From contig JBHLLF010000009.1 in the NCBI GenBank assembly GCA_048885865.1, positions 1-64,000 on the forward strand: a stretch of 64,000 nt of DNA, in the 5' to 3' direction. This stretch comes from Candidatus Hermodarchaeota archaeon. GTDB lineage: Archaea > Asgardarchaeota > Thorarchaeia > Thorarchaeales > Thorarchaeaceae. Position numbers and translations under genes: made by a program. Shown in pieces: positions 4,181 through 61,723 of the stretch; position 1 is the stretch's first letter, and each line of letters starts with the position of its first letter. The notes beneath the pieces are model-generated. The model had not been told where the DNA came from and made no database searches. It saw only the letters and a program-made list of their open reading frames with translations.

Positions 4181-4329
4181 TGTCGAACGCGATGACAACT
4201 CTTTGCCGTCTTATGCTGAGGCAGAGTGCAGGCATCTATGACCGGACCCATTATCCGGATATCGACATTTACTAACGCTTAATACCAATGTGTCTGCATA
4301 ATCTCTGCAATAGTAAAGGAGGACCAACA

Positions 4330-4491
4330 ATGGAAAAAGGTCATGACCAGCATATGTGTGTATTCTCTCGACATAACGATGTTGCGCAAATCGTAGAACG
4401 CGTCAAGGGTGCAAAGTTCATGTGTCAGAACTGTGGCAGAGTTGCTAACAAAAAGGAGTATCTCTGCAAACCCATAGCAGTCGAAGTATAA
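4330..4491 (+). CDS. Small Cys/His zinc-binding protein
   Basis: AAGGAGG SD before ATG 4330; HxxHxC...CQNCGR...LCKP pattern. Confidence 0.75.
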   Translation: MEKGHDQHMCVFSRHNDVAQIVERVKGAKFMCQNCGRVANKKEYLCKPIAVEV

Positions 4492-4707
4492 GCTGCTACA
4501 GCAATTTCGACACGACGTGCAATCGCGTTGCTCAAGAATCATTATCATGATTCAGAGCTATTTGAAGGGGGAATGAGATACCCCGACTCAAGAGGCCGGG
4601 GTATCAAGTATCTATGGGAACATGAGAGGAGTCCATATACTCAACTTTTTCCAGCCGCTTATCTCGGTAATGTCGCTCAAACTCATCAGGAGAGCAATAG
4701 ACTGCAG

Positions 4708-5157
4708 CTACATGTCTTTGTTGATTTCTCTAAGCCAAGCTGGAGCTCGAAATTCCTTTACAACTAACCATCGCCCTTTGCTCCAGTCAGGATATGGCTT
4801 GATATCTAGAACAGGGGATTTATCACAGGCGTCAAGACCCCGGACCCACAGAATGTTTTCTTCTCGTCTGATGAGCTCCACCAGGGATAGCCCAATTGAA
4901 TTTGGATGCCTTGGCGACCTGGCGGCCAAAACTCCATCCTTGGCCCACTCTGACCTCTCTAAGGATACTTGATGCAGATAGTAGATTATGTAGACATGCG
5001 ACCATTCTTCAATTCCGTTCAATGCAGGAGTTAGTTCGCTGTCAATTATGATTCGGACCAAATGTGATAGATCTCGCTCATCTTCTTCTGCAGACTCTCG
5101 TGCTATATAGCCAATTGGAAACATCTGGATGTTATCTGAGTCGGACAATCTCTCCAC
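4708..5157 (-). CDS. tsaA: tRNA m6t6A37 methyltransferase TsaA/TrmO-like
   Basis: PIGYI, GVLAARSPRHPNSIGLS, GLDACDKSPVLDIKPY. Confidence 0.85.
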   Translation of the reverse strand: MERLSDSDNIQMFPIGYIARESAEEDERDLSHLVRIIIDSELTPALNGIEEWSHVYIIYYLHQVSLERSEWAKDGVLAARSPRHPNSIGLSLVELIRREENILWVRGLDACDKSPVLDIKPYPDWSKGRWLVVKEFRAPAWLREINKDM

Positions 5158-5255
5158 AATTTGTCATGGTCATCAACAGTGATTAAAAAACTGTGCCAGA
5201 CCGACCTTACTATTCGGCTTCCAGTATCATCTGAGGTGTGTCTAGGAGAAACGAT

Positions 5256-5444
5256 CTAAGGGGTATTCCGCGTCCTTTCCACATCCTGCTCTTCACTATC
5301 TTCGGATGAGTTTTCTGGTTTGTCAGTGATTCCTAGCATCTTGCGCCATGCCTTCTTTCCAGCCTCATCAAGGTCTTCTGCGACTGCCTGCATAATGGCA
5401 ACCACTTTGAAGGCGGTTTCCTGCTCCTTCTCTTCTTTGCTCAA
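5256..5444 (-). CDS. Small hypothetical protein
   Basis: 62-aa ORF co-oriented directly downstream of the DUF1801 gene. Confidence 0.5.
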   Translation of the reverse strand: MSKEEKEQETAFKVVAIMQAVAEDLDEAGKKAWRKMLGITDKPENSSEDSEEQDVERTRNTP

Positions 5445-5458
5445 TGATATCAGATAGA

Positions 5459-5866
5459 TTATCTGTCAAACCGTTTAAGGGATTTCTTGATTATCTTCTT
5501 GAGCACGTTTTTGTCTACATCTGCGAGCTTGTTGATGTAAAGGCATGATTTTCCAATTTTGTGTTTGCCCAGCTTATCGAGTAAATCCTTGTACTCTTCA
5601 AAACCTGACATGATATAGACTGTAAGGCTCTTTTTTCTGGGAGAGAACCCTGTCAGGGGCATATCACCCTCGCGTCCGCTTTCGTATTTGTAATGATATG
5701 ACCCAAACCCAATGATGGACGGCCCCCACATTATGGGCTCTTCATTTGTTATTTCCTTCATCATCTCTAGAAGCTCAAAGCCGTCTTCTCTTCTCTGAGG
5801 ATGCTCAACGTCTTTCAAGAAGTCTTCAACACTTGCATCCGTGGGTCTTGTCTTTGCTTCACTCAT
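5459..5866 (-). CDS. DUF1801 / YdhG-like protein
   Basis: MWGPSIIGFGSYHYKYESGREGD, GFSPRK, LGKHKIGKSCLYI. Confidence 0.9.
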   Translation of the reverse strand: MSEAKTRPTDASVEDFLKDVEHPQRREDGFELLEMMKEITNEEPIMWGPSIIGFGSYHYKYESGREGDMPLTGFSPRKKSLTVYIMSGFEEYKDLLDKLGKHKIGKSCLYINKLADVDKNVLKKIIKKSLKRFDR

Positions 5867-5934
5867 AATTATAGTTAAGTTGTAGAGTAATAAAATGGTT
5901 TCTCTAGCTGCCGAAGCAATTACTAACGATTCAA

Positions 5935-6468
5935 TTATCTCTGAAGTGCTGCGGCTACAGGCAAATCAATCTGCAGAACTGAACCCTCATAGTGCTGAAT
6001 CCGAGCGCCTGCGCGTTCGGCAATTGTGATAATCGCGACGTTGTTTGATAGGACGTGCGCTCTCAGGTGCTTAATCCCGTTTTCGTCTGCAAGCTCTGCA
6101 AGTGCCTGCAATAGCTGAGTTCCAAGTCCTCTGTTCTGGAATTCATCAATGACCGTCACTGCCGCTTCTGCAACATCCGGCTCGCCCTCACATCGGACAT
6201 ACCTAGCGATGCCAATCCCGACCATGGGATCCTGACTAGTGTCGAATGCACAGATGGCCAGATGATGATCCTGGTCTATCTTCTTGAGTTCCTTGAGCTG
6301 AGCATCAGGTAGCTTGCACAAGCTCGTCATGAATCGGAGGTAGAAGGAACTATCTGAGATCTTCTTCAGTCCTTCACGCACTTCATTAATGTCGTCAGGC
6401 TCGTACATCCTAATGAGTACGGGTGTTCCATCCTTTAGTTGCGATTCACGACGAAATTCGATTGTCAA
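5935..6468 (-). CDS. GNAT acetyltransferase
   Basis: LKDGTPVLIR, ARYVR, AEAAVTVIDEFQNRGLGT acetyl-CoA motif. Confidence 0.9.
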   Translation of the reverse strand: MTIEFRRESQLKDGTPVLIRMYEPDDINEVREGLKKISDSSFYLRFMTSLCKLPDAQLKELKKIDQDHHLAICAFDTSQDPMVGIGIARYVRCEGEPDVAEAAVTVIDEFQNRGLGTQLLQALAELADENGIKHLRAHVLSNNVAIITIAERAGARIQHYEGSVLQIDLPVAAALQR

Positions 6469-6525
6469 TACTTGCTCGATCTAGAATACTCACCACTTCG
6501 CTATATATCATATCGACCGAAATCG

Positions 6526-7614
6526 CTAGTTAGAATTTTGATAATCCACGCCAAGTCCAGGACCAACGGGACGGAGGATTGTTCCTTGGTCTTCTACTAA
6601 TCCCTGTATAGGATCATCCGCCAGCTCCTGTGTGCCTATTTCATGAGGATGGTTGAAGTTAGAACCCGAGAGGACAAGATGGACTGCAGCAGACACTCCA
6701 ATCTGAGTTTCCCATGGACTGATCACAACGCACTCAATCCCATGCTCCTCAGCTAGCGATGCGATTTGTCTTGCCCTGTAAATCCCGCCGTGTTTTATGA
6801 GTTTGAGCCCGAAGAAGTCCACCGCTTCGTGTTCAATAAGTGATTCTGCGTCTTTGATTGTGTATAGCGACTCATCGGCCATGATGGGTGTGCCACTTTC
6901 TTTTCGAATTTGGCCAAGGCCATCATGATTGTCTGCAGCTACGGGCTGTTCGAGGTATTCTAAGTCGATGTTCTCAGTTTTACGTAGTACCTTTAGCGCT
7001 GTTTCAACTGAATATCCTGTGTTGGCGTCTGCACGAATTCTAACGGAATCTCCTACAACATCTCTCACTATCTTCAGGGTTTCAATGTCTTGGGCTGGCT
7101 CGATTCCAACTTTGATCTTGATAGCTCTGGCCCCATGCTCTACTTCCTGCAAAGCTGTCTTCGCAATCTCAGCGGGATTTCCAATCCCTAGCACCTTTGC
7201 CAACTCCACATGGTCACGGGAAAGACCGCCGAGAATCTGGTAGACGGGAACGCCCCTCAACTTTCCTGCGAGATCATGAAGAGCAATGTCAATTCCGGCT
7301 CTCGCTGTGCCTCCCGCCAGAGGATATTCATCCAGGTCCTCATTGAGATTGTCAAAATCAAACGGATCTTTCCCAGTCATACTAGGCCCCAAGTCCTGAT
7401 CGATGACACGTTTGATATGATTGAAGTCATCGTCAGCCGTAAAGGGGAGGGGACAAGCCTCACCAATGCCTGTAATTCCATTGTCGGCAGTGATCCAAAC
7501 CATCACGTGATGGCGAGTGGTGGGTTCGCTTCCATAGGTGGTAACGAATTCACCGGCGAGATGCGTCTGTACTAATCGAGTTCTAAATGATGCTATTGAT
7601 ACCATATTCCTCAC
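6526..7614 (-). CDS. Enolase superfamily, dipeptide epimerase / muconate lactonizing enzyme subgroup
   Basis: GIGEA, DIALHDL, KIKVG, DANTGY, EQP, ADES, KLIKHGG. Confidence 0.92.
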   Translation of the reverse strand: MRNMVSIASFRTRLVQTHLAGEFVTTYGSEPTTRHHVMVWITADNGITGIGEACPLPFTADDDFNHIKRVIDQDLGPSMTGKDPFDFDNLNEDLDEYPLAGGTARAGIDIALHDLAGKLRGVPVYQILGGLSRDHVELAKVLGIGNPAEIAKTALQEVEHGARAIKIKVGIEPAQDIETLKIVRDVVGDSVRIRADANTGYSVETALKVLRKTENIDLEYLEQPVAADNHDGLGQIRKESGTPIMADESLYTIKDAESLIEHEAVDFFGLKLIKHGGIYRARQIASLAEEHGIECVVISPWETQIGVSAAVHLVLSGSNFNHPHEIGTQELADDPIQGLVEDQGTILRPVGPGLGVDYQNSN

Positions 7615-7792
7615 AGGATCTCTTTTTTCATCAGGTCTGGCAACACGATTAGATTAATCTGCTTGGACAAGTCCTCGTTATGTAACACATCATCCTAAGT
7701 AGGACTTTATACTCATCCTCCAATAGAGTCCTTTGGTAATTGAACACAGTAGATTGATAACCATCCTGCTGATGTACCTAAGGTGATGCCAC

Positions 7793-7996
7793 ATGCAATT
7801 CGCACAACCCCAGTATATGGACACATTCTTCCAGTACATATTCGGCTTCTTTGACCAGCTGTTCGCGACGCCCCTGCAGCCTTATATTCAATTGGGACCA
7901 GGAGACTGGTTCTTCGTAATCTATACCCTATTTTGGATAGTTGTAGTGGCAGTAGTCCGGAGACGCGGCGGTCGTAGAAGCACGTATCAAGTCTAG
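7793..7996 (+). CDS. Small single-pass membrane protein
   Basis: AGGTGA SD; TM segment followed by RRRGGRR. Confidence 0.65.
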   Translation: MQFAQPQYMDTFFQYIFGFFDQLFATPLQPYIQLGPGDWFFVIYTLFWIVVVAVVRRRGGRRSTYQV

Positions 7997-8147
7997 CAAG
8001 ATTGTTTTAATTGAGGACGGAGGACCGGCCAACAAGTCCTCATCGTATGACAATTCGCGATTGGAAACTAGGTTCAAGCATCGAGCATCGCATTTTTCTG
8101 CTAATACGGGTGAGTTGGATAATAGCAGAAGCAGGTTGGCAATTTAC

Positions 8148-8726
8148 ATGCATAAACTCCTCCTAGAAATTCCGACTCTCCTGGAATCGGAAACCCTGAT
8201 TGTCAGAAAATTCGAGAGAGGCGACGGAAAAGGTCTCCTAGCCTTGTTGGAACGCAACAGCAACAGAGAGTTTCTCAGAGAGGCCGCTGATGAAGTAGAT
8301 GACATCAAGACGCTAGATGATGCTGAAATTGATATCAGAGAACATGCAGCAGAGTGGGAATCCAGAAAGAGGTTCGTAATGGGCATTTGGCTGAAGGCTA
8401 CAGGCGAATATGTAGGACAGATTTGGATTGAACCAAAGAGGTGGGAAGTACCATCTTTTGAGCTAGGCTATTACATTGATCAGGGCTGTGCTCGAAAGGG
8501 GATAGCAACCGAAGCAGCCAAACGGGCATTGAGATTCCTATTCGAAGACTTGAAGGCTCACAAAGTGATAATCATAACTCGCGATACAAATGAGAGAAGT
8601 TGGAAACTGGCAGAGAGATTGGGATTCAAGAGGGAGGGGCATCATCGAGAGTGCAATATAAGGGATGGAAAGCGTTGGGGTCTCTTCTATTATGGAATGT
8701 TGAGATCTGAGTTCAAGAGTGCTTAA
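8148..8726 (+). CDS. GNAT acetyltransferase, RimJ/RimL family
   Basis: FELGYY, RKGIATEA, NERSWKLAERLGFKREG; start moved to ATG 8148. Confidence 0.9.
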   Translation: MHKLLLEIPTLLESETLIVRKFERGDGKGLLALLERNSNREFLREAADEVDDIKTLDDAEIDIREHAAEWESRKRFVMGIWLKATGEYVGQIWIEPKRWEVPSFELGYYIDQGCARKGIATEAAKRALRFLFEDLKAHKVIIITRDTNERSWKLAERLGFKREGHHRECNIRDGKRWGLFYYGMLRSEFKSA

Positions 8727-8751
8727 GTGATAGGTTGGAGAGGGCTGAGAT

Positions 8752-9387
8752 ATGGACGATGAAATCCGTGAAGAACTCACTCGCCTTGTAATGGAAATGG
8801 GGCAAGACCTTGAGGATCCGGAGAGTTATCTGAAGCTCGGTTGGAAACTATATGACGAGTCACGCCTCGAAGATGCAACGCAAGCCTATGAAATAGCTTT
8901 AGAACTCAATCCGTCCTATGCAGATGCATGGCGCGAGTTGGGAGCCACGTTATTCATCCTGGGTCACAATGAAGAGGCCGAGTCTGCGATGACTACTGGA
9001 CTGAAACACGACTCAAATGATGCCGACGCATGGTACAATCTAGGATGCCTCTATAATGCAAATGAGCGAGAAGAGGAAGCGGAGAAGGCTTTTAGGACTG
9101 CACTCGAGTATCAACCGGAGGGCCCGGACATATGGTGCAATCTGGGTATCCTATTGGCTTCAATTGGCCGTACTGATGAAGCCGAAACAGCTCTCAAGAA
9201 GGCGGTCGAGATTAGACCTGAGCATTTAGTGGCTTGGCTCAATCTTGTCAAACTACTCTATTCTGAAAATCGAGAGGAGGAAGCCGAGAATGCATATGAT
9301 GCAGCGGTTTCTCATGTCCCTGGATTTGAGAACTTCGTGGAGTCACTGAAGGATTTTGCAGACGACAAGCTCGACGAGGCGAGTTGA
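8752..9387 (+). CDS. TPR repeat protein
   Basis: About five TPR units (AWxxLG...A...A.EL.P). Confidence 0.9.
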   Translation: MDDEIREELTRLVMEMGQDLEDPESYLKLGWKLYDESRLEDATQAYEIALELNPSYADAWRELGATLFILGHNEEAESAMTTGLKHDSNDADAWYNLGCLYNANEREEEAEKAFRTALEYQPEGPDIWCNLGILLASIGRTDEAETALKKAVEIRPEHLVAWLNLVKLLYSENREEEAENAYDAAVSHVPGFENFVESLKDFADDKLDEAS

Positions 9388-9959
9388 GATTGAGCTTCGA
9401 GAACTCCTTTGAAACGCCAGTACAGAAAATAGAACTTGAGCAGCTCCCTCGAGAAGGACTGATAATTGACATTGGTGGCGGTGGAGAGGGTCTAGTCTCC
9501 CGAATTGAAACCTCCAGAGTCTGCGCGGTGGACTTCAATTTGAATAAGATTAGAGAGGCCATGATCTATGGTCAGATGTCACAGTGGATACTCTCTGACG
9601 CAAGGATGCTGCCAGTAAAGGATGAGGGGTTCAATGTAGCCACTCTTTGGTTCTCTCTCGGATATATTCAAGATTGGGACTCAAAGAGACAAGTATTAGC
9701 TGAAGCAGCAAGAGCGATGAAGCAATCTGGACATATCTCAATCATTGGTGCGAGAATCACATGCTCTGACTCAAGATTCGTCATAAGAACGCTTTTTCAT
9801 TTTCCCGATGGATCGATTTCCAAGATGAGCTATGGTATGGCTGGCATGCAGAGGCAGGATGCAGAATCTGTTGTCAATTTGATTCAAGAAACGGGCTTCA
9901 GCAATATCACATGTGAAGACAATGGACATTGGTTTCGTGTTAATGCACAGAAACAATAG
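9384..9959 (+). CDS. Class I SAM-dependent methyltransferase
   Basis: IIDIGGGGEG motif I; DARMLP. Confidence 0.85.
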   Translation: MRLSFENSFETPVQKIELEQLPREGLIIDIGGGGEGLVSRIETSRVCAVDFNLNKIREAMIYGQMSQWILSDARMLPVKDEGFNVATLWFSLGYIQDWDSKRQVLAEAARAMKQSGHISIIGARITCSDSRFVIRTLFHFPDGSISKMSYGMAGMQRQDAESVVNLIQETGFSNITCEDNGHWFRVNAQKQ

Positions 9960-10038
9960 CTAGAGTTGACTGTGTTCCAAAAGCTTAAAGTGGAAACCGT
10001 TTGTCTGAGCGGCCAACTCAGAAGCCAGGTGGAGAAGA

Positions 10039-10557
10039 ATGAGCCTAGCAGTATGGTGGAGAAGAGGCAGCAAACCAGGACTCATCTTGATTTTCCTCGG
10101 AATTGCTGGACTAGCCCAAATTCCAATTCTGTGGCATGCACAGGCCTACATCATTGTGCTAAGCGCTGAACTCCAGCTTCTTGTTGCTCTCGGGGCCATG
10201 GCGGTGCTGGGTGGTGCGTTTATCCTCATGGCAGAGGCAATGTATAGATGGGCTCATATTGTTTCAAGGAAGAAGAAGCGTCGACGTCAGAGAGAGAGGA
10301 ATGACATCATAACTCGACTATCTAGATTCGCCAGATCTTCGACGGATATGCCGGCATTTGTTGGAGTTGCGCTATTGACCTGCATGTTCTTCATGTTCTA
10401 CTTCATTCCATTCGCAATCGCTGACGGAACTAATCTCCCCTCGTTCTTGGCGACCATCGCGTTCTTCGACTCACTCTATATTTACCCAATAGCAGTCAAT
10501 GCAGCTGCGGTTCTGGCAGCGCTCGTTGCCAGCTATATGAACCACAAAATAAGGTAG
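10039..10557 (+). CDS. Four-TM membrane protein
   Basis: Four hydrophobic segments with a basic loop. Confidence 0.7.
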   Translation: MSLAVWWRRGSKPGLILIFLGIAGLAQIPILWHAQAYIIVLSAELQLLVALGAMAVLGGAFILMAEAMYRWAHIVSRKKKRRRQRERNDIITRLSRFARSSTDMPAFVGVALLTCMFFMFYFIPFAIADGTNLPSFLATIAFFDSLYIYPIAVNAAAVLAALVASYMNHKIR

Positions 10558-10630
10558 ATTCAAAATTCCGGTCAATCTAGACCTGAATTCTTAAGTTGAG
10601 TCGGCATTAGATGTAGCTAGGTGAAGCGCT

Positions 10631-11098
10631 ATGGTTGATATCGGAGACATAGCACCGGATTTCACATTACTAGAGGCACCTGCAAAGAGTGTCACATTGA
10701 GTGATGAGTTGAAGGAGGGCCCAGTGGTCTTGTTATTCTATCCAGCTGATTTCACGTCAGTGTGCACAGAGGAAATGTGTTTCTTCAGAGATACACTTGC
10801 AGATTACAACGACTTGGGTGCGAATGTTCTTGGAATATCTGTTGATGGCATTTTCAGTCATGCGGCATTCAAGGAAAAGAATGCAATACAGTTCCCATTG
10901 CTTTCAGATTGGGAGAAGACAGTAATCCATGCCTACGATGTAGTCCATCCAGACCTTGCAGGTATGAAAGAAGTTGCCAAGAGAGCTGTGTTTGTGGTCG
11001 GTGTGGATGGCAAAGTAAGCTACAAGTGGATAGGAGCTAGCCTCGGCGATCTTCCGCCCTTTGATGAAGTGACGGCTGCAGTTAAGGACCTAACTTAA
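10631..11098 (+). CDS. Peroxiredoxin (AhpC/TSA, Bcp/AhpE-like)
   Basis: APDFTL, FYPADFTSVCTEE, FPLLSD, KRAVFVV. Confidence 0.95.
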   Translation: MVDIGDIAPDFTLLEAPAKSVTLSDELKEGPVVLLFYPADFTSVCTEEMCFFRDTLADYNDLGANVLGISVDGIFSHAAFKEKNAIQFPLLSDWEKTVIHAYDVVHPDLAGMKEVAKRAVFVVGVDGKVSYKWIGASLGDLPPFDEVTAAVKDLT

Positions 11099-11392
11099 AA
11101 TCCAAATCGTAAATACAGACCAGTGAGAAGCAGCACCATAAAGATGGTGAATTCAACCAGAATTTTCGGATGAGTCATAGAGATTTGCAATGTTTCAAGG
11201 TTCACAAGGGTGTAATCAGGAAAGCAAGTGCAACGAATGATCCGCTATCATGAAGTCACTAATTGTGATTGGGTCCATAATCATCCCTTTTAGATTGCTC
11301 AAGATGAGTACCTATTAATCAATAATGGCAGAGGAAATGTCTGACGTCGCTAGCTTTATATCACGAATCCAAAGCCATGAAATCGCTAACGT

Positions 11393-11499
11393 GCCGCGGT
11401 AGATCAGCCAGGGAGATCGCACGGCTGAAGACCGTGTTGTCCGCGGTTCACACTGGATATATACGATCCAGTGGCCGAAAAATCCGCGCCGCGGCACCA
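11393..11499 (+). tRNA. tRNA-Phe(GAA) with 30-nt T-loop intron (56/57; 11450-11479)
   Basis: GCCGCGG/CCGCGGC acceptor, GATC D-stem, CACGG-CTGAAGA-CCGTG anticodon arm; BHB CGGT/GCCG with CACTGGAT/ATCCAGTG hairpin; encoded CCA. Confidence 0.95.
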
Positions 11500-11603
11500 T
11501 TCATTCTATACGTTTTTCCAGATTACGGTTGCTTTATGGACTTCCAAAAAGCCGCAACATCAACACTAATTCGATTGCTTAATCATATTCAACAGGTGTA
11601 GAA

Positions 11604-12059
11604 ATGCGCAGGCTCAATCCGAAGAAACTCCATGTTCGCTATAATTCACCAACTTCAGAAGAAGGCCCAATTCATCCAAGATGCTATACATTGACACACT
11701 CAGATCGGACTGGCGATTTCTTTCTCACAGTTGGACCAGAATACGATGAGATGCAAATTCGAGGACTATATACACGCCTCATGAGAGACGAAGTCGTTGC
11801 TGAGTGGAGGGAGGGCAAAGAGGGGTCGGAACTTCATGTTCATTGCGAAGTAGGTAGAGGACTTGGTTCAGCTAGGATGAGAGAGAACATATTTCGCAGA
11901 GAACTCGACTTAGTTCTAGAAGCATTCCGCTATGGTGACCGTGAGTTTTTCGAGAAATATCCCATTCTCGATTCTGCAAGAATTCTGGTGCATTTTCATG
12001 CACGGAAGAAGGTGAACGATAAAGTGGAGGATTGGGGTAGGCCTGAGAATTATTCTTGA
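11604..12059 (+). CDS. Stay-green (SGR, Mg-dechelatase) family protein
   Basis: LNPKKLHV, PRCYTLTHSDRTG, RLMRDEVVAEW, LHVHC, IFRRELDLVLEAFRYGD. Confidence 0.9.
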   Translation: MRRLNPKKLHVRYNSPTSEEGPIHPRCYTLTHSDRTGDFFLTVGPEYDEMQIRGLYTRLMRDEVVAEWREGKEGSELHVHCEVGRGLGSARMRENIFRRELDLVLEAFRYGDREFFEKYPILDSARILVHFHARKKVNDKVEDWGRPENYS

Positions 12060-12077
12060 CTGTAAATGAGTTAGAGT

Positions 12078-12090
12078 GTTCAAATCCACG
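12078..12090 (+). repeat. Partial copy of the spliced tRNA-Phe T-arm
   Basis: GTTCAAATCCACG vs mature GTTCAAATCCGCG (12/13), intergenic just after the SGR gene. Confidence 0.35.
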
Positions 12091-12134
12091 GCCCTCTGAT
12101 TTCAGCTGCCGTCTTGATTTCAAATAACATTGTG

Positions 12135-13085
12135 TCATGAAAGCAGCGGCATAACTTCTTCACAAAACAGGTTCATGTCCTCAGGTGATGTGCTTGGTGC
12201 AAATGTCAGAGTGAAGAATCCAAATCCCATCTCAACATAATTCTGAAGTTGCTCAGCTATTTCATTCGGAGTACCTATCTTGAAAATCTCCATATCTACA
12301 CTAGTCGATCTCACACCACTTCCGCTTGAGGCTTCAGCGGTCTTCCTTATCTTGAACTGGACTTCTTCATTGTCACCGCCGAGGAAAAGAATGAAGCCAA
12401 TCCCCTTTCTTATCTCATCATAGTCCCGACCCACAGACTTGCAGTGGTCCCTCAATGCTTGCAGCTTGTCTTTGACAACCTCTAAGCTACACCATGGGTG
12501 GAAGTGACTGATATCAGCATGCTTTGCTGCTATCTTGAGGGTGAACCTTTCCCCTCCTCCTCCAACCAGTATCGGGATATGTTTCTGCACAGGCGGGGGC
12601 GAATTCTGCACATCTCTATACTGGTATACTTTTCCTTTGTAGTTAGATTTCTCATTGGTGAACATACCTCTGCAGATTTCCACTGTTTCCTCGAGCCCCC
12701 CCATTCGTTCCGTGACAGGCGGGAATCTATTGAAATACGCTTTGAATTCTTGTTCGTGCCATCCTGCGCCTAGACCAAGAATCAGCCTTCCATTGGAGAT
12801 GATATCAATAGTGGTAGCCATCCTTCCTAGGAGAGTCGGCTCTCGAAAACCATAGCAGCTTACCAAAGGAGCCAGTTTGATTCTCTCAGTCACCCCAGCC
12901 AAGCCCGCTAGCGTTGTCCAGCATTCCAAAGGTGGGCCTCTTCCAGTTCCAGGGTCCATAAAATGGTCAGGAATGGAGAAGAAATCAAGTCCACAATCTT
13001 CAGCTGATTGACACATCTGTTTCATAGTCTCAAAGTCACGACTCTCTCCAGCTTCATTTATGCCAAACCAAATCTCACCAGGCAT
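12135..13085 (-). CDS. LLM-class (luciferase-like, probably F420-dependent) oxidoreductase
   Basis: PDHF, LECWTTLAGLA, SNGRLILGLGAGW, PILVGGGGE. Confidence 0.93.
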   Translation of the reverse strand: MPGEIWFGINEAGESRDFETMKQMCQSAEDCGLDFFSIPDHFMDPGTGRGPPLECWTTLAGLAGVTERIKLAPLVSCYGFREPTLLGRMATTIDIISNGRLILGLGAGWHEQEFKAYFNRFPPVTERMGGLEETVEICRGMFTNEKSNYKGKVYQYRDVQNSPPPVQKHIPILVGGGGERFTLKIAAKHADISHFHPWCSLEVVKDKLQALRDHCKSVGRDYDEIRKGIGFILFLGGDNEEVQFKIRKTAEASSGSGVRSTSVDMEIFKIGTPNEIAEQLQNYVEMGFGFFTLTFAPSTSPEDMNLFCEEVMPLLS

Positions 13086-13178
13086 GTACTCCCAACCTTT
13101 GCGAATAATAGCGAACATCAATTAATAAAATGAGGAACCAGATTTGTCTTCTGGTATTATGAAGAATCTTGAGGAATA

Positions 13179-13201
13179 TTCGGATGCTCATCGTGACACC
13201 A
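13179..13201 (+). repeat. Degenerate copy of the tRNA-Phe 3' end (spliced form)
   Basis: TTCGGATGCTCATCGTGACACCA vs TTCAAATCCGCGCCGCGGCACCA, 15/23 ungapped. Confidence 0.35.
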
Positions 13202-13281
13202 CACCATTCTCTGACTTCTGAATAGAGAAGACTCAATAGATATTCAAGTTGACTTTCATAATCGATCTGGAGTTGGCTACC

Positions 13282-13626
13282 ATGCGCATAGTACGGGAAT
13301 CTGAAGCCCCCATGCTGGAAACCGTTAAGGGAAGACAGGGAGTGATTCTCATAGTTGGCGAAAACGTCATGATGATGAAACTCACCATCGAACCAGGAAT
13401 ACCGACTCCGCCACATTCACATCCTCATGAGCAAATGGGCTATCTACTGGAAGGGAAGGGCATTCTGTACATTAACAACGAGTCCAGAGAGATTGAAGCA
13501 GGCACATCATTCTGGATACCTCCAAATGCCCCTCACAACTTTGATGCAACGGGAGATAGGCCTGCAGTTCTTATCGAGGCTTTCAGTCCTCCTCGAGAAG
13601 ACTATTTGAATCGTGTCGAAGACTAA
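13282..13626 (+). CDS. Cupin domain protein
   Basis: PHSHPHEQMGY...IPPNAPH...FSPPREDY. Confidence 0.92.
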   Translation: MRIVRESEAPMLETVKGRQGVILIVGENVMMMKLTIEPGIPTPPHSHPHEQMGYLLEGKGILYINNESREIEAGTSFWIPPNAPHNFDATGDRPAVLIEAFSPPREDYLNRVED

Positions 13627-13790
13627 TGCGGATGGTTTGACTGGTTAAGAAACTGGCAATCTATGCCTGAGGATTTGCCAAGAAGGTCATGGAACAATAA
13701 ACCTTGAATTCTGCCGAAAAGTAGTTATCGAAATCTGCAGAATGCAGTATGTCGACTCCAGAATACCTCAGGACTCATCTATGATGGGAC

Positions 13791-14225
13791 GTGATTGCGT
13801 TGAAGTGGTCTGAATTCACGAAGTATGCGCTTATTGGCATGCTTGTTGTCGGTCTTTTTCTTTCAGTTCCATACAGACGAGTTGAACAGCGAACCAATAC
13901 CTATGAGTTTACACCCCAATCATGGCACAATGTCACGCTGTTGTTTGGAGGCCCGATGATCACCCTTGTCACTGTTGATCTGAACAGAACATCGGATATT
14001 CGCTTCATGTATCCGGAGGGAGTTTGGCCTAGGAATTTCCTGCTGGCGTCATTTACGGGGACAAATGCAATGTATAACTATCGAGGGGAACATTATACAA
14101 TATCTATTGAAATTGACGCAAAAGGACCAGTTTGGATTAGGGTGCGCTATGTATATGCTGAAGAAATAGAGGGCAGCTTTTTTGACGACCCATTTAGCTG
14201 GCTGAATCCTTTCACGTTTCCCTGA
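13791..14225 (+). CDS. Membrane-anchored hypothetical protein
   Basis: N-terminal TM, beta-rich body. Confidence 0.65.
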   Translation: MIALKWSEFTKYALIGMLVVGLFLSVPYRRVEQRTNTYEFTPQSWHNVTLLFGGPMITLVTVDLNRTSDIRFMYPEGVWPRNFLLASFTGTNAMYNYRGEHYTISIEIDAKGPVWIRVRYVYAEEIEGSFFDDPFSWLNPFTFP

Positions 14226-14285
14226 CAGCAAGCTTGGTCGTGGTCGTGGAATTAGACTCTTATCAATTCCTATTCCGAGGTGAAC

Positions 14286-14585
14286 CTATGCCTTCCCATG
14301 GGCCCTCTTCCTAGCAGTGATTTTGAGGACCACGCCCGCTGAGGTGGGATCAGGACAACGAACGAACTCTGTTGTGATTCCATCCTTGTTGATGACCTTC
14401 TCATAGGGAGTGCCCTTGTAGCTCCACCCAAGTCGACCATCGAATATCAGTACTCGAATCATTGCATTTGCACTGTCTAGGAGCCACGGACATATCTTAC
14501 CTGCATCTTCCTCATACTTGAACTTCTGACCCACAGGGTGTCTCCCACACCCGCTCTCGAATATCTCAAGTTCTATTTCTCTCAT
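14286..14585 (-). CDS. TIGR04076-like Cys-containing protein
   Basis: CGRHPVGQKF, ICPW, CPDP; AGGAGGT SD before ATG 14585. Confidence 0.7.
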   Translation of the reverse strand: MREIELEIFESGCGRHPVGQKFKYEEDAGKICPWLLDSANAMIRVLIFDGRLGWSYKGTPYEKVINKDGITTEFVRCPDPTSAGVVLKITARKRAHGKA

Positions 14586-14744
14586 CGAAAAGCAACCTCC
14601 TTTTTGATGACAATAGCCCCTCAATAGTGGTTTCTATTAACGCAGGATTTTCCACTCTAGAAAGGACCATATGCGGAAAAGGCCAAGTGGTGGCTAGGAG
14701 ATTTGCAGGTGTCAGAAACTGTATGGGGTATTTTTCCACTAGCA

Positions 14745-14927
14745 ATGGATGAGAGCGACCTCATGATGCTGCTCCTGTCACTACTAGTGCTCATTGTACT
14801 TGTAATTCTGATATTCATCACTTTTCCAATGGAAATAGCCCTACTCATGACTGCTGGAATCGGACTTGCATTTGTATATGCAGTATATGAAACAAGAAAG
14901 ATGGCTAGATTGAATGCCGGAGAATGA
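14745..14927 (+). CDS. Small two-TM membrane protein
   Basis: Two hydrophobic helices. Confidence 0.55.
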   Translation: MDESDLMMLLLSLLVLIVLVILIFITFPMEIALLMTAGIGLAFVYAVYETRKMARLNAGE

Positions 14928-14967
14928 GAGAAAAAGAGGAAGGGGGCTGATGCCCCCCGATTGTTTG

Positions 14968-16080
14968 TTAAGAACCTTGATATCCGTCAGAATAGACTCG
15001 GCGTTTCTCGTATTCTTCTTCATAGCGGCGGTAGAGGCGTCTGCGTCTGCCAAAAGGCCGCTGCCTCTTGCCATGGTCACCCTGCCACCATAGACCCCTG
15101 CCACTCTGGAGATGCATTGGAACCTTCGTCAGGTTAACAATGACCTTCCAGGTGTTAGTCACGACTACGATGAAGATGATGAAGAGCCATATCGAGTCGA
15201 ATGATACGAAGGGAATCCCTTGATCGATGAAGAAGGCCTCCAAGTCAATCAGACCCCAAGTCACTCCATCAATACTGCCATAGAAGTAGTCTGTAGGCCA
15301 GCCGACGTTGATAAGACCCATTGCCAACAGGATCATGGCTATTCCCAGCACTGCTTCGAAGATCAGATTGAGGTTGTTCTCACCTGCCACCAGAAACATG
15401 CCACCCTTGACAGCACCCAAGAATAACAGCGCTACTACAGGCCCTACGAAGGGAACGAATGCAGGCGTGTAGAGAGCCTGGATTGTTGGGTGGAGTAGGA
15501 CTATTCCGAAAACAATCCCGAAGAACACATCACCTGCTGCATCAGACTTTGGCTTGGGCTTGAAGCCTTCACTTCCTATGCCGAGGAATCCCTCTAGAGC
15601 GGTCCTTTCAGTCGGCAACTTCTCCCTATCAGCCAGAGTGATTCCACCGATTATCACCACGACAAAGACCACGTTGACCACTATCATGATTGGCAGTGAC
15701 ACGGGGAAGTTCTCAATCTCAGCGATTACCCCGAGGGGAACGAGTAGAGCATTGCCAACAACATATGCGCCTACGATAAATGCAACCCCTACTCCTATCA
15801 GGACTAGTAGCATTCTCATCACAGGCTGGGCATATTCAGCAGGAACAGGTCCAACCTTCTTACCGCTATCCGCATACTCACTCGCCACCGTCTTGGGCTC
15901 ACCCATCCGTTCAATCGCCATGAGCGTTGAGCCCGGGGTCATGTTCCCACTCCCAATAGACTCAGCAGACTCAATGAGGTGAGTGCGAATCTCTCGGAGG
16001 ACGTCCTCGCTGCCAATAGGCAAATAGACCTTGACACGATCAAGATACTCATCAATAAGCTTCATTGGATCCTTGGTCAT
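14968..16080 (-). CDS. PadR-associated membrane sensor (HAAS-like N-terminus)
   Basis: LIDEYL..V...L...EIRTHL...ERMGEPKTVASEY plus several TMs; coupled to padR. Confidence 0.8.
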   Translation of the reverse strand: MTKDPMKLIDEYLDRVKVYLPIGSEDVLREIRTHLIESAESIGSGNMTPGSTLMAIERMGEPKTVASEYADSGKKVGPVPAEYAQPVMRMLLVLIGVGVAFIVGAYVVGNALLVPLGVIAEIENFPVSLPIMIVVNVVFVVVIIGGITLADREKLPTERTALEGFLGIGSEGFKPKPKSDAAGDVFFGIVFGIVLLHPTIQALYTPAFVPFVGPVVALLFLGAVKGGMFLVAGENNLNLIFEAVLGIAMILLAMGLINVGWPTDYFYGSIDGVTWGLIDLEAFFIDQGIPFVSFDSIWLFIIFIVVVTNTWKVIVNLTKVPMHLQSGRGLWWQGDHGKRQRPFGRRRRLYRRYEEEYEKRRVYSDGYQGS

Positions 16081-26160: not shown

Positions 26161-26268
26161 GCGCTCGTTGTCTAGGGGCTATGATGGATCCCTGCCAATG
26201 CGCGGGGGTTTATCCCTCGGAACCGTAGAACGGATCCGGCCCGGGTTCGAATCCCGGCGAGCGCACCA
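26161..26268 (+). tRNA. tRNA-Gly(GCC) with canonical 33-nt intron (37/38; 26198-26230)
   Basis: GCGCTCG/CGAGCGC acceptor, GATCC/GGATC stem, BHB CTGC/GTAG, CCGGG-TTCGAAT-CCCGG. Confidence 0.95.
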
Positions 26269-26286
26269 TCCCTCTAATTATGTTCG

Positions 26287-27369
26287 TCATCTAACCAGAC
26301 TCTCAAAAAGCCGAGCTGACCTCTTATCCTGAGAATCAGTTTCAGTTGCTTGTTTCAATGCTTCCCGTGCTTCATCAATGCGGTTCTGCTTTAGAAGGGC
26401 AATTCCAAGATCACACCAAGCAGCTGTGAGTGACGGGTCAATTCCAATAGCCGATCTTAGTGCAGTTTCCGCTTCCTCGTATTTGCTTTGAGCGAGCAAG
26501 CATTTACCCAATGTGTGGGGGAAGTCAGCATATTCAGGGGACTCTTCAGCCAGTTTCCTGTACTTAGCTTCAGCCTGGGGCATGCTTCCCAAGCCACTCA
26601 ATGAGATAGTGAACAACTGTCTGGCTCTTGGGTCAATTCGACTCAGTTCTGCTCGTTTAGTCGAGAGATCTATTAACCCAATCTCTTCAAGTTTCGCCCC
26701 AAGTCTATCGATTGCAAAGTCAGTAAGTGGCTCAATGCTTATTGCTTTCTCATATGCCTCGAGGGCTTCATCCAACATGCCTTGCATGAGCAGGACAACT
26801 CCTAGTTTGATCCACACTACGTAGCTCCGGCTGTTGAATTGAAGGGCTTTCTGATAACTATGGATAGCTTCTTCGTATTTCTGGTCGCGTTGTTGAAAAT
26901 CGGCCAACTTCTCCCACTGAAATGAATCATCTGGATGGGTTCTCACGCCTTCTTCATAGGCTTCCTCTGCTGATACTTCAAGACCCAGCTCAGCAGATAG
27001 CTCAGCAATGTGGTTCCATGACGATGTGTCGTCAGGCTTTCTAGAAACTGCTTCGCGAAAGCATTCTATTGCCTCAATCTTGAGGCCTTCTGACATCAAG
27101 AAGAAACCTAGCTGCCTCAGAGCGTTGGGACTCGCTTCATGAGTCCGAGCAGCCTCTCTTAGCATTGTCTTGGCAGCCTCTCTTTTACCATGATTGTAAA
27201 GGAATATTGCGTAGGAAGTCAAACCCGCCTCGAATTCGGGATAAGTAGATGTCAATTCTATATAGGTGTCCTCAGCTGCTCTATGATCTCCTTTCTGTTC
27301 AAACTCAATGGATTTGGTCAAGAGCCCAAATGCTCTTTCATGTCGTATCCAATTCCGAATCCTACGCAA
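26287..27369 (-). CDS. TPR repeat protein
   Basis: Eight or more TPR-like units. Confidence 0.88.
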   Translation of the reverse strand: MRRIRNWIRHERAFGLLTKSIEFEQKGDHRAAEDTYIELTSTYPEFEAGLTSYAIFLYNHGKREAAKTMLREAARTHEASPNALRQLGFFLMSEGLKIEAIECFREAVSRKPDDTSSWNHIAELSAELGLEVSAEEAYEEGVRTHPDDSFQWEKLADFQQRDQKYEEAIHSYQKALQFNSRSYVVWIKLGVVLLMQGMLDEALEAYEKAISIEPLTDFAIDRLGAKLEEIGLIDLSTKRAELSRIDPRARQLFTISLSGLGSMPQAEAKYRKLAEESPEYADFPHTLGKCLLAQSKYEEAETALRSAIGIDPSLTAAWCDLGIALLKQNRIDEAREALKQATETDSQDKRSARLFESLVR

Positions 27370-27417
27370 CGTCTATTCTCTCAGTGATGATATTGGATTA
27401 ATGGCATATAGATTATC

Positions 27418-27482
27418 GTTAGCGGGTTATCATGCAGCTCTTCGAAGCTATGACCAGGGTTCGAATCCCGGCGAACGTACCA
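27418..27482 (+). pseudogene. Degenerate tRNA-Gly-like copy; direct repeat of the tRNA-Gly(GCC) 3' end
   Basis: 27460-27482 matches 26246-26268 at 21/23; decayed anticodon and D-arm-like sequence upstream; no 5' acceptor strand. Confidence 0.8.
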
Positions 27483-27586
27483 TTTCTTGCATTCCTAGAA
27501 GCATCGATACGATATGTTCATCTTAGAGTGAATGCCTGTTGTGCAGCAATAATAAGCCTTCAAAATCCATGGGGGACCGAAGTGAG

Positions 27587-28057
27587 ATGTCTTTTCGATA
27601 TACTGTTAGAGTAGGATATATCCTGCTTGTTCTAACCCTACTAACACCCTTCAGCGCAATGATCCAGGCAATAACTGAAGATAATACCACGATTGCGCTA
27701 CTTGCCCCCTTGTGGCAGTACATATGGCACAGCACATTGCCAGTTCATTTTGCATTCTCTCCATTCGGTTTGCTATACTTTCCATACTATGGTTTGAGTG
27801 TGTATATCTCGTGGCTAGCTTACAATACAGCCCGCAAGCAGAATATTGAAAGAAAACAGTATGCATGGAGATTAGTCATCATAATAGCTCTTCAGATTGC
27901 AGTGATACTGCTAATTCCGCCCTTTAGTGGGGACCCTCGGCCCGTGAATATTCCACTGCCTATAATGGGCGTACTGGGACTTCTTCTTACAAACTACACT
28001 GTGAGGAAACTAACTAGTCCATGGGAGGATCAAGTGGTCTTTTCTGAATCAGAATAG
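27587..28057 (+). CDS. Four-TM membrane protein
   Basis: Hydrophobic segments; C-terminal SPW motif. Confidence 0.7.
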   Translation: MSFRYTVRVGYILLVLTLLTPFSAMIQAITEDNTTIALLAPLWQYIWHSTLPVHFAFSPFGLLYFPYYGLSVYISWLAYNTARKQNIERKQYAWRLVIIIALQIAVILLIPPFSGDPRPVNIPLPIMGVLGLLLTNYTVRKLTSPWEDQVVFSESE

Positions 28058-28076
28058 ACTCATGCATAGCTAGTAA

Positions 28077-28099
28077 TTTGAATCTCTGCGAGCGCATCA
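28077..28099 (+). repeat. Second repeat of the tRNA-Gly(GCC) 3' end
   Basis: TTTGAATCTCTGCGAGCGCATCA vs TTCGAATCCCGGCGAGCGCACCA (19/23). Confidence 0.75.
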
Positions 28100-59227: not shown

Positions 59228-59347
59228 GCGGAGGTTGCCAAGCCTGGCCAAAGGCGCTAGGTTGAGGGCCTAGTTCAGTAGTGATTCGCGAGACTCCGGG
59301 TAATTCGTAGACCCGGGGCGCGTATTCAAATCTCGCCCTCCGCACCA
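59228..59347 (+). tRNA. tRNA-Leu(GAG) with 32-nt T-arm intron (53/54; 59293-59324)
   Basis: GCGGAGG/CCTCCGC acceptor, CTAGG-TTGAGGG-CCTAG, long variable arm, GCGAG|TTCAAAT CTCGC; central helix CGCG/CGCG with AGA and TAT bulges. Confidence 0.93.
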
Positions 59348-59379
59348 CCTTCTTCTTGATTCATTGAAATAGATTATTA

Positions 59380-59607
59380 CTATTCTTTGTCATCAATTCC
59401 AGGTAGATGACCCCCATAAAACCCGCCCATGCCCATGCCTTTAACCCCTCCCAAGTTTGAAGCTTGTGGTGCCGTATCTGAATACCTCGCTTGTGCAGAA
59501 GGAACACTAGTTTGCGAAGACTTGTTCCTTCTATCTTCTGGATAAAGCAAGAGAATGAGTGCGATAATGATTACACCAGCGATAAGCCCAGTAAACCACA
59601 GATTCAA
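59380..59607 (-). CDS. Small single-TM protein
   Basis: N-terminal TM, Gly-rich tail; fills the space between tRNA-Leu and its repeat. Confidence 0.6.
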   Translation of the reverse strand: MNLWFTGLIAGVIIIALILLLYPEDRRNKSSQTSVPSAQARYSDTAPQASNLGGVKGMGMGGFYGGHLPGIDDKE

Positions 59608-59670
59608 CTCAGTTAGCTTCCGTATTGATTTTGGTTTGAGTTGAGATAAACATTACCACGAACGAGATAT

Positions 59671-59693
59671 TTCAAATCTCACCCTCCGCACCA
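59671..59693 (+). repeat. Direct repeat of the tRNA-Leu 3' end
   Basis: TTCAAATCTCACCCTCCGCACCA vs 59325-59347 (22/23). Confidence 0.9.
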
Positions 59694-59772
59694 CTTTTCC
59701 TATTCTCTTTGAGGACTAGCTATCTTCTTATTATCGGAATCAAACCGGAGTGTGTTTGAAAGGTGATCTCAT

Positions 59773-60276
59773 TTGAATGAAGGGAATCACAAATTCAATG
59801 ACAAACTTGTAATGACATATGCTCAATACTTCAAGGCAATGACAAGCCGGGCTGCAAGCATAATCAGGGCATTTGAATCCGCCTTTGGAAGGGAAGAAGT
59901 CCATCAAGTTCTCAAGGATTGGTCAGAGAACGCGGCGCGTAAAATGGCCCCAGACTCAATAGCTGATTTTCAGAAGTTCAAAAACTACTGGAAGACTACA
60001 TTAGAGTCTGAGAATTGGTCAAAGATTCTGACCTGCGAGTTTCTTGAAGAGTCCAATAGGAAGTTGGCGTGCAAGTATTCCGAATGCCTATGGGCGGAAA
60101 CAATGAAGGATATGAATACTGAAGATATTGGTTACATTCTATTTTGCCACCCGGATTTTGAAATGGCAAAAGCAATGCATCCGAATCTAAGATTGGAGCG
60201 GTCTCGTACGCTTATGGAAGGGCATGAATTCTGTGATCACACATTCTATTGGGATGAGAAACCAACACCTGATTAG
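59773..60276 (+). CDS. L-2-amino-thiazoline-4-carboxylate hydrolase-like protein
   Basis: ECLWAE, GY..FCHPD, LERSRTLMEGHEFCD. Confidence 0.85.
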   Translation: MNEGNHKFNDKLVMTYAQYFKAMTSRAASIIRAFESAFGREEVHQVLKDWSENAARKMAPDSIADFQKFKNYWKTTLESENWSKILTCEFLEESNRKLACKYSECLWAETMKDMNTEDIGYILFCHPDFEMAKAMHPNLRLERSRTLMEGHEFCDHTFYWDEKPTPD

Positions 60277-60286
60277 TGGCTGTGTG

Positions 60287-60309
60287 CTTATATTACGCCC
60301 TGCGAACCA
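60287..60309 (+). repeat. Degenerate second repeat of the tRNA-Leu 3' end
   Basis: CTTATATTACGCCCTGCGAACCA, 16/23 ungapped, followed by a pyrimidine tract. Confidence 0.55.
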
Positions 60310-60328
60310 TCTGCTTCTAGGTGAGTTT

Positions 60329-60868
60329 TCACCTCACAAGCAGGATTGCGTATCTATTCATTGTCTGATCATAGTCAGATAGAACCTCTATCGGATAACC
60401 CACAGCCCTCGCTGTTGAAAAGACATCTACAGCCATGGCTTCTGGTGGAGGTCTGGAAAGCCTCTTCTGCTTGCAGTCTTCTCTAGCGCTAACACATTCA
60501 TCGCACAACGAACAGTTGTCTGCAGGGAGGATGAAAGCCTTGACTTCTCCTGAAAGAAACACCTCTCGCTCTAGCTTGAGAAGCTTCAGGTTTATTTCCT
60601 TCATTATTTCATGACGATCATCAGGATTGTCAAGTTCTATAGATAGGTGAAACAAGGCAATGTCATTATATTCGTCAAATAGCTCCCTGCACTCGGATAC
60701 TGATGGCGTGTTAGGAGGACATGCAGCGCATTGTCCATAGCTGGAGCATCCCCATGTGCATTTCATACGCACCCATTGGGAAACAACGACTTCCTTGGGA
60801 CCAATCCATTTGTAGTCATCGAATCCATGTTTCACAAACAGAGTTTCAAGATTCTTCAGACCGCTCAT
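60329..60868 (-). CDS. DUF2284 metal-binding protein
   Basis: WVRMKC.WGC..YG....CPP, CSLCDEC, RPPPEAMAVDV. Confidence 0.9.
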   Translation of the reverse strand: MSGLKNLETLFVKHGFDDYKWIGPKEVVVSQWVRMKCTWGCSSYGQCAACPPNTPSVSECRELFDEYNDIALFHLSIELDNPDDRHEIMKEINLKLLKLEREVFLSGEVKAFILPADNCSLCDECVSAREDCKQKRLSRPPPEAMAVDVFSTARAVGYPIEVLSDYDQTMNRYAILLVR

Positions 60869-60994
60869 AGTCTATCATCCTGATGCAAATATTGGCTTGT
60901 TTTTAGATTTGCCTTTGAACGTAACCTTCGCTTTCTAGATTCCATGGGACTTTTCAGAAGGATTAGTTCTGCTAACAGATAGGAGGCTATTGTA

Positions 60995-61315
60995 ATGAGT
61001 CTGTATGATCAATTCAAAGAAGAGATGAGGGAGGTCTGCACTGAATATCACAACTTGCTCCGGCAAAAAGAAGCTCTTGAAGCCCAACTAGAAACGCTTC
61101 ATGATTACATAGAAGCCACCATGAAGAAATACAAGCAGAATGAATACGATGAACCAGAAGTGCCTGTGAAGGTTGACAGAATCGAGTATATGACCGAGCG
61201 TATGAAGAGGGGTGGCAAGAAAAAGCTCAAGGAGATTCTGACAGAAAAGCAGTGGTCGGAAATTTACACAGAGAAGAAGGTTGTGAGCTATCGAATAACT
61301 CAGCGAGAAGAATGA
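60995..61315 (+). CDS. Hypothetical coiled-coil protein
   Basis: AGGAGG SD; 106 aa. Confidence 0.8.
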   Translation: MSLYDQFKEEMREVCTEYHNLLRQKEALEAQLETLHDYIEATMKKYKQNEYDEPEVPVKVDRIEYMTERMKRGGKKKLKEILTEKQWSEIYTEKKVVSYRITQREE

Positions 61316-61723
61316 GTCCTTTGTTTTGGACCCACCCATCACGGGGAGGCAAACCGCATGTTCAGGGTGGGTCCTTTGAGGGAGTTGTCGTCAGGAGCGT
61401 GATAGGGGGTTCCGAAGACAGAGGAACTCTCGCGCTTGGCGGGTCCGGATTGTCAAGGTGGGGAGCAAGAGAGGGCATAGGGACTCGGACTTTTTGAGAG
61501 GCCCAAGGGAACCCCCAGAGAGTCTTGCACACTACTTACAATCATGAACCCTGTTGGGGAGATATAAGGCTGTAATGCGAATTGGGGACATTCAAGAATA
61601 TGGTAATTGCGAAAAATTCGTCAAAATGAAATGGTTTTGAACGAGTAGTACATTCCACGGAGAAGAGGAATCTATAAAGGAGAACCAGTTTTTGATGAAA
61701 TCAAACAGCAGGAGTGGGCAGCC

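Follow-up and report, generated by a model that had tools for sequence, protein, structure and literature searches.

A tRNA-Leu(GAG) gene heads a stack of single-gene cassettes in a Thorarchaeales archaeon

In a 64,000-nt stretch of a Candidatus Hermodarchaeota genome (hereafter the window; contig C9, positions 1–64000), a tRNA-Leu(GAG) gene is followed by copies of its own 3' end that alternate with small gene-bearing units. Comparison among assembled relatives shows a serially built, tRNA-anchored stack of one-gene cassettes exchanged at a 23-mer. The cassettes share one plan: a T/C-rich, trailer-like tract, a single gene, and then a copy of the last 23 bases of the tRNA. The host genome (G000; 3.58 Mb, 117 contigs, 46% GC, 87% complete) has the Candidatus Thorarchaeota metagenome-assembled genome (MAG) JBHLRP01 as its closest named relative. 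Segments of the locus were mapped onto 16 loci of congeners and family members (the other G numbers) and onto two metagenome contigs (L070 and L071). The parts of the locus, including the open reading frames (ORFs) of the cassettes, are as follows.

59228–59292, plus strand: 5' exon of tRNA-Leu(GAG), positions 1–53, ending in the T-stem strand GCGAG (ARAGORN, after splicing)
59293–59324, plus strand: intron of 32 nt at the non-canonical position 53/54, with a relaxed bulge-helix-bulge motif
59325–59347, plus strand: R1, the tRNA 3' exon from the T-loop to the encoded CCA, the functional repeat copy
59348–59670: cassette 1 (346-bp period, U346), its only gene a 75-aa membrane ORF at 59380–59607, minus strand
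59671–59693, plus strand: R2, a displaced copy of the tRNA 3' end (22/23), in which a G-to-A change would break a T-stem pair
59694–60286: cassette 2 (616-bp period), its only gene ATC-hydrolase-like, at 59773–60276, plus strand (Pfam PF14196, 8.4e-20)
60287–60309, plus strand: R3, a degenerate or hybrid copy (16/23, 7 mismatches; 18/27 in register)
60310–60919: cassette 3, its only gene DUF2284, at 60329–60868, minus strand (Pfam PF10050, 4.9e-44)
60920–60944, plus strand: R4, a possible, almost erased fourth copy (about 13/23 with a 2-nt insertion)

The sequence-only reading of this stretch had reported that the tRNA 3' exon recurs at 59671 and 60287, at spacings of 346 bp (R1 to R2) and 616 bp (R2 to R3), and both repeats and both spacings were confirmed. 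R1 reads TTCAAATCTCGCCCTCCGCACCA over its 23 nt. R2 has a single mismatch to it, a match that did not occur in 100 shuffles (0 expected), and the R2 ortholog in G015 is identical to R1 (23/23). For the weaker R3, matches of the same grade were counted genome-wide; the rate of 1.05e-5 per position gives 0.016 expected in the 1.5-kb zone on one strand. The ortholog of R3 in G002 is nearer to the consensus than R3 itself, and R3 is thus a genuine copy. That ortholog has its seven mismatches confined to the first 12 nt, the last 11 being free of them (p about 0.003, computed by hand), and the degenerate left half is common to G002 and this genome despite their differing right-hand neighbours. This split, together with the shared left half, indicates that this copy of R3 is a hybrid with a crossover near the acceptor strand: its left half moves with the ATC-hydrolase-like (ATC) unit, and its right half goes with the flank downstream. 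R4 can be aligned with the 3' terminus of the tRNA in G011, G009, and G006; the ~20 nt beyond R4 are likewise homologous to what comes after the tRNA in those genomes. R4 is probably a fourth, very decayed copy, weak as the match is on its own. From R1 to R4, mismatches rise away from the tRNA (0, 1, 7, and about 10).

The contents of the units also proved to be those first proposed, with Pfam matches for cassettes 2 and 3 and a hydrophobic N-terminus for the product of cassette 1. The 75-aa ORF has no Pfam family and a single hydrophobic N-terminal helix. Its ratio of nonsynonymous to synonymous substitution rates (dN/dS) against the G014 copy is 0.36–0.39, from which it is probably a real, weakly constrained gene. 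The ORF was found in only three of the 86 family genomes, each time within a U346 unit.

Eight arrangements of the locus were seen among 17 congeners and the two metagenome contigs, and every junction in them falls at a copy of the 23-mer. The anchor is tRNA-Leu(GAG) in the first six and, at the loci of G014:C31 and G016, was assigned to tRNA-Leu(TAG).

a: tRNA, DUF2284 (G008 and G014:C130)
b: tRNA, U346, DUF2284 (L070; L071 has the U346–DUF2284 part without the tRNA)
c: tRNA, U346, ATC, DUF2284 (this genome)
d: tRNA, U498, U346, ATC, DUF2284 (G015)
e: tRNA, U1910, ATC (G002)
f: tRNA, U915 (G010)
g: tRNA-Leu(TAG), U597, U346 (G014:C31)
h: tRNA-Leu(TAG), DUF2284 (G016)

U346 keeps a period of 346–347 bp in all four sequences that have both of its ends (G000, G015, G014:C31, and L070; L071 is partly covered), with identities to the copy in this genome of 98% (G015), 91% (L071), 87% (L070), and 83% (G014:C31). 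Its neighbours differ on both sides, and its anchors are two different tRNA-Leu genes, GAG and TAG, which have this 23-mer in common. The proposal that the 346-bp unit is a discrete mini-cassette instead of an eroding provirus is thus supported by its constant length, its 83–98% identity, its changing neighbours, and its two anchors. The ATC unit lies behind another cassette in G002 and is missing between U346 and DUF2284 in L070 and L071. The occurrence of U346 with DUF2284 but without ATC, and of ATC without U346 or DUF2284, implies either that single cassettes were lost precisely or that the same cassette was inserted more than once; under either, the units behave as discrete modules bounded by the 23-mer. 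The additional units of the relatives hold one gene each, encoding a 132-aa protein, an acyl-CoA thioesterase, an S9 peptidase, a 152-aa membrane protein, a 632-aa secreted protein, or an alpha/beta hydrolase, and no mobility gene was found among them. The extra unit is the tRNA-proximal one in G015, G002, G014, and G006. The sequence-only reading had named two outcomes that would speak against a mini-cassette. One of them, an integrase-bearing island between these repeats, was not found in any relative. The other, a misassembly, was not borne out, because the full layout was assembled independently in G015 (95–98% identity) and parts of it in G002, G014, L070, and L071.

A survey of arrays with this layout covered 23 loci with 73 repeat copies and 47 units of 298–4685 bp. 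Identity sets in sharply on the left, at tRNA position 54 or 55 in eight of the nine internal copies of tRNA-Leu and in most of those of tRNA-Ala. The base at position 54 is frequently altered (T, C, G, and A among the five copies that follow U346). A minority of copies reach the anticodon loop (about 45 nt), take in the end of the 53/54 intron, or span most of the tRNA, and repeat lengths are 23, about 33, about 45, and 77 or more nt. Tyrosine integrases that target tRNA genes use three sublocations, namely the T-loop, the anticodon loop, and the 3' end (PMC8371274), and the points at which identity begins in the arrays (T-loop, anticodon loop, and one near the acceptor strand) match the attachment (att) sublocations of these enzymes. 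The right edge is always the encoded CCA. The 12 nt that follow the 73 repeat copies are 81% pyrimidine (50% in the background); such a tract at the start of a unit resembles a tRNA trailer, as expected if each unit once stood directly behind the tRNA. At T-loop position 57, A and G variants are mixed within single arrays, which shows that cassettes bring their own copy and that the copies are not simple target duplications. Terminal inverted repeats were not detected in the units (5.85 matches of 20, compared with 5.11 for random pairs), and the 23-mer has no internal inverted repeat. Each of the tRNA-Leu and tRNA-Gly units examined is taken up almost entirely by one ORF. Gene orientation is mixed (about 13 minus and 5 plus), some units hold operons, and the CCA is encoded in the genome. 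As in integrative elements, direct repeats of the 3' part of the tRNA flank the insert and the tRNA gene is restored; as in integrons, the array consists of compact single-ORF cassettes and varies between relatives.

The same architecture is found elsewhere in this genome and in the family. In the window, a tRNA-Gly(GCC) gene at 26161–26268, with an intron at the canonical position, is followed by two repeats of its 3' end, one at 27460 with 2 mismatches and one at 28077 with 4; this array (26161–28099) encloses genes for a 360-aa TPR protein and a 172-aa membrane protein. An array takes up the entire 15.5-kb contig C54 (locus L039, positions 1–15492); the 3' end of a tRNA-Ala is present there ten times, and the units carry one to four cargo genes each, including genes for an amidohydrolase, MarR, a methyltransferase, a flavodoxin, an LVIVD protein, a solute-binding protein, a beta-lactamase-fold protein, and a luciferase-like oxidoreductase. 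This contig contains no tRNA body and no mobility gene, and both of its ends lie inside the array. As a proxy for strain heterogeneity, contig ends that fall close to the 3' end of a tRNA were counted; there are 3 where 1.1 are expected, an uninformative difference. Furthermore, tRNA-Ala arrays with three to seven copies occur in many genera of the family. The tRNA-Leu locus is one case of a family-wide phenomenon.

Three further observations concern similar loci. Two tRNA-Ala arrays from different genera (L058:3290–3670 in G046 and L059:4162–4446 in G082) encode homologous small zinc-ribbon membrane proteins with 32% identity, each of which fills a unit of 390–520 bp. These proteins represent a recurring type of mini-cassette; they were considered as the recombining enzyme and rejected, as they look like cargo. 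On contig C23 of this genome (locus L040), the 3' end of tRNA-Tyr is repeated exactly at 5386 and 16781, 11.4 kb apart, and the interval holds ordinary-looking genes, among them one for a TFB-like protein. On contig C88 (locus L042, 6391–7592), a 1.2-kb stretch contains another tRNA-like 3' end (TTCAAATCCCACCTGGCCCGCCA and a variant) in three copies, of which one is inverted.

The intron of the anchoring tRNA lies at 53/54, the junction of T-stem and T-loop. The unspliced sequence (59228–59347) is not called as a tRNA by ARAGORN or Rfam, and deletion of 59293–59324 yields a canonical 88-nt tRNA-Leu(GAG) with a clean fold in ARAGORN. The 5' exon is 100% identical in G015, G010, and G002. An intron at the same position is present in G010 and G002, of the same genus, and in G017, G018, and G020, of other genera, and is missing from the tRNA-Leu(GAG) of G015, G008, G011, G006, and G004. 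Its hairpin shows compensatory changes among relatives (CCGGG/CCCGG, CCGAG/CTCGG, and TCGAG/CTCGA). As is characteristic of non-canonical introns in archaea, excision restores the cloverleaf and the intron is conserved with compensatory changes; the 53/54 intron is real and old. The position of the intron varies among close relatives, being 53/54 in G000, G010, and G002 and about 46/47 in G014, G009, and one metagenome contig (L005, L013, L019, and L070 compared), and tRNA-Leu(GAG) introns at different positions open with similar bases (ACTCC...). An old proposal holds that tRNA introns hinder integration, and the arrays put it to a direct test in nature: cassettes accumulate here even though the intron lies precisely at the left edge of the attachment sequence.

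To the right of the cassettes lie two features that do not belong to the stack.

60995–61315, plus strand: ORF for a 106-aa coiled-coil protein, which adjoins the tRNA in more distant congeners
61324–61545, plus strand: a conserved, GC-rich, structured RNA-like element, the constant right border

In G011 and G009, the 106-aa ORF directly adjoins the 3' end of the tRNA, and in G006 a single 2.4-kb cassette stands between them. In G000, G015, G010, G002, and G008, the variable zone stops at 61324, and no copy of the repeat precedes the border element. This element has 57% GC, opens with a perfect 10-bp hairpin (GGACCCACCC/GGGTGGGTCC), and is predicted to fold into several helices. Among the five genomes it hardly varies, whereas the flanking genes there are only 80–95% identical. 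It has no match in Rfam and is likely an unclassified structured RNA. The other flank of the locus is a phosphorylase gene.

The boundary geometry is best explained by a site-specific reaction at the tRNA 3' end, catalyzed by an enzyme acting in trans, and we give this explanation about an even chance of being correct. A cassette would join by recombination within the 23-mer of the functional tRNA gene, and the insertion would rebuild the tRNA from the copy that the cassette carries. The old 3' end and everything behind it would be pushed one step downstream and decay there, and excision or exchange could occur between any two copies. The enzyme would not be encoded in the array. Several results weigh against this explanation. 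The bases to the left of internal copies contain no conserved half-site that mirrors the T-stem. This genome has no match to PF00589, even among fragments read through in six frames (its completeness of 87% applies), and no match to serine recombinases. PF00589 is sparse among relatives (four of 17 genus genomes; 16 of 41 family genomes, or 7 of 20 of high quality) and its presence is uncorrelated with arrays; a Xer-type recombinase thus seems to be missing from most of these archaea. Inspection of 14 integrase loci revealed no tRNA and no T-loop-to-CCA site beside any of them, and integrases of the SSV type (surveyed with PF16795) are absent from all 17 genus genomes. In addition, the Leu and Ala 23-mers had no match in IMG/VR as candidate viral attachment sites (attP); an 18-mer query gave one chance match, to an unrelated phage contig with 54% GC. 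The enzyme may be supplied by a virus or plasmid that was not binned, since MAGs lose extrachromosomal elements.

The scarcity of recombinases is what would be expected if no dedicated enzyme were involved, a possibility that we consider somewhat unlikely. Short-homology recombination between 23-mers would then loop units out, and ordinary homologous recombination with related strains, anchored in the tRNA and the neighbouring genes, would spread and reshuffle them. No recombinase family tested is present in the array, in this genome, or in most genus genomes. Arrangements a to d differ only by the presence or absence of units between conserved flanks, for which allelic exchange suffices, and in G015 the differences extend together over the intron, the proximal unit, and 260 bp in front of the tRNA, like one replaced segment. 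However, such a route leaves unexplained the founding event, in which a new gene is first flanked by the 23-mer, and the precision of the left edge, which stays within 1 nt of position 54 across dozens of independent units and two tRNA families. With no more than 23 bp of homology, it would also have to carry units from one tRNA-Leu locus to the other (GAG and TAG). Another rival explanation is the erosion of integrase-bearing viruses or plasmids, inserted in tandem at the tRNA and worn down to one cargo gene and two att copies. Tandem integration at tRNA genes, loss of the integrase after integration, and partial tRNA copies are all documented (PMC8371274; bioRxiv 10.1101/2020.12.28.424599), the att geometry fits, and MAGs tend to miss extrachromosomal elements. 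Against this, the annotated units among the 47 carry only cargo, a single ORF filling the Leu and Gly units examined; no integrase, whole or fragment, and no other mobility gene was found among them, and a six-frame search revealed no integrase fragments. The length of 346 bp is stable across lineages about 15% apart in sequence, and an integrase-bearing relative of any cassette was found in none of the 86 family genomes. Erosion is accordingly judged improbable.

Some casposons target tRNA 3' ends, and the order of a leader-like tRNA body, a repeat, and a new unit beside the leader recalls the layout of a CRISPR array. A Cas1-like integrase or nuclease could make staggered cuts at the ends of the 23-mer and so duplicate the target, or an RNA-guided or homing nuclease could drive replacement of the gene end; transposons that combine Cas1 and TnpB exist in Asgard archaea (PMC10691335). 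Either version appears very improbable here. Cas1 (surveyed with PF01867) is found in none of the 17 genus genomes and in 19 of the 86 family genomes, where it is uncorrelated with arrays, and TnpB has no match above the cut-off in this genome. The units lack terminal inverted repeats, the repeat has no fixed length, and variants at position 57 within one array do not agree with simple target duplication. Four other candidates were rejected. Retro-insertion primed by a tRNA 3' fragment does not accord with the mixed gene orientation (13 to 5), the operons in some units, and the genome-encoded CCA; the two boundary classes do coincide with the cleavage sites that give rise to tRNA halves and to 3' tRNA-derived fragments (tRF-3). 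The use of R2 in a split tRNA or as an alternative 3' exon was dismissed, as no sequence complementary to the intron or to exon 1 lies upstream of R2, which also carries the change that breaks the T-stem. Insertion of the Tn7 or CRISPR-associated transposon (CAST) type would leave a gap and element ends after the tRNA, and insertion of the IS110 type would not duplicate 23 nt, so both were set aside on anatomy.

On a broader scale, we propose tentatively, and with more doubt than confidence, that Thorarchaeia may have a lineage-wide platform for gene capture in which tRNA 3' ends serve as attachment sites. One-gene cassettes would be inserted, excised, and exchanged either through machinery that has no relation to known integrases, Cas1, or transposases, or by purely homology-based means. 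The platform would be a functional analogue of the integron, with an independent origin in the lineage of archaea nearest to eukaryotes. No known organisms are more closely related to eukaryotes than the Asgard archaea, and the arrays bear on how these archaea take up and shuffle genes. At these tRNA genes, accessory genes for hydrolases, peptidases, small membrane proteins, and regulators are handled singly, as portable modules. If an enzyme drives the process, it would constitute a new site-specific recombination system with a very short natural target of 23 nt; if not, the arrays show how far short-homology recombination can structure a pangenome.

Elements of Asgard archaea that integrate at tRNA genes and carry integrases are known (PMC8813620), and literature searches found no description of one-gene tRNA arrays such as these. 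The arrays differ from integrase-bearing tRNA elements of the SSV and pNOB8 type in that the units contain no integrase gene, intact or split. Integrons are a functional analogue: as in the arrays, their cassettes are compact, mostly hold one gene, are poor in promoters, end in a recombination site, appear to be inserted proximally, and are shuffled among relatives. Unlike in integrons, no IntI lies beside the array, the site is the 23-nt end of a tRNA and not a folded attC, gene orientation is mixed, and each insertion has to rebuild the functional tRNA gene that serves as the anchor. Archaeal integrons have reportedly been observed. The cis-mobilizable elements (CIMEs) of streptococci are att-flanked, lack an integrase, stand in tandem at a tRNA-type site, and are served by an enzyme in trans; they derive from, and coexist with, related integrase-bearing integrative and conjugative elements (ICEs) at the same site. 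The units described here are likewise att-flanked, tandem, and devoid of integrases, but a related integrase-bearing partner with the same att site was not found in the 86 family genomes or in IMG/VR, an absence that carries little weight in MAGs. With casposons and CRISPR arrays they share a polar layout of repeat, unit, and repeat; they differ from casposons in the absence of Cas1 from the genus genomes searched (PolB was not searched), in the lack of inverted repeats, and in a repeat of at least 23 nt as opposed to a target duplication of 14–15 bp. By their defining features, the arrays are therefore not integrons, integrase-bearing integrative elements, casposons, or CIMEs.

The closest known systems are tandem accretion islands, represented by the tycheposons of Prochlorococcus (bioRxiv 10.1101/2020.12.28.424599) and by gene capture and tandem elements in archaea (PMC8371274). 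In these islands, as in the arrays, elements lie side by side behind a tRNA with partial tRNA copies between them, newcomers push older elements outward, the tRNA is rebuilt, and identity begins at the T-loop or the anticodon loop. Unlike in tycheposon islands, however, no integrase or replication modules and no fragmented integrase were found in the 47 units at the 23 loci. The arrays mostly consist of single cargo genes, without a whole integrase or a fragment of one, and tiny units recur in varied order behind different tRNA genes. Taken together, these comparisons indicate that the arrays are best classed as tRNA-anchored accretion, with single-gene, recombinase-free cassettes that recur in different orders.

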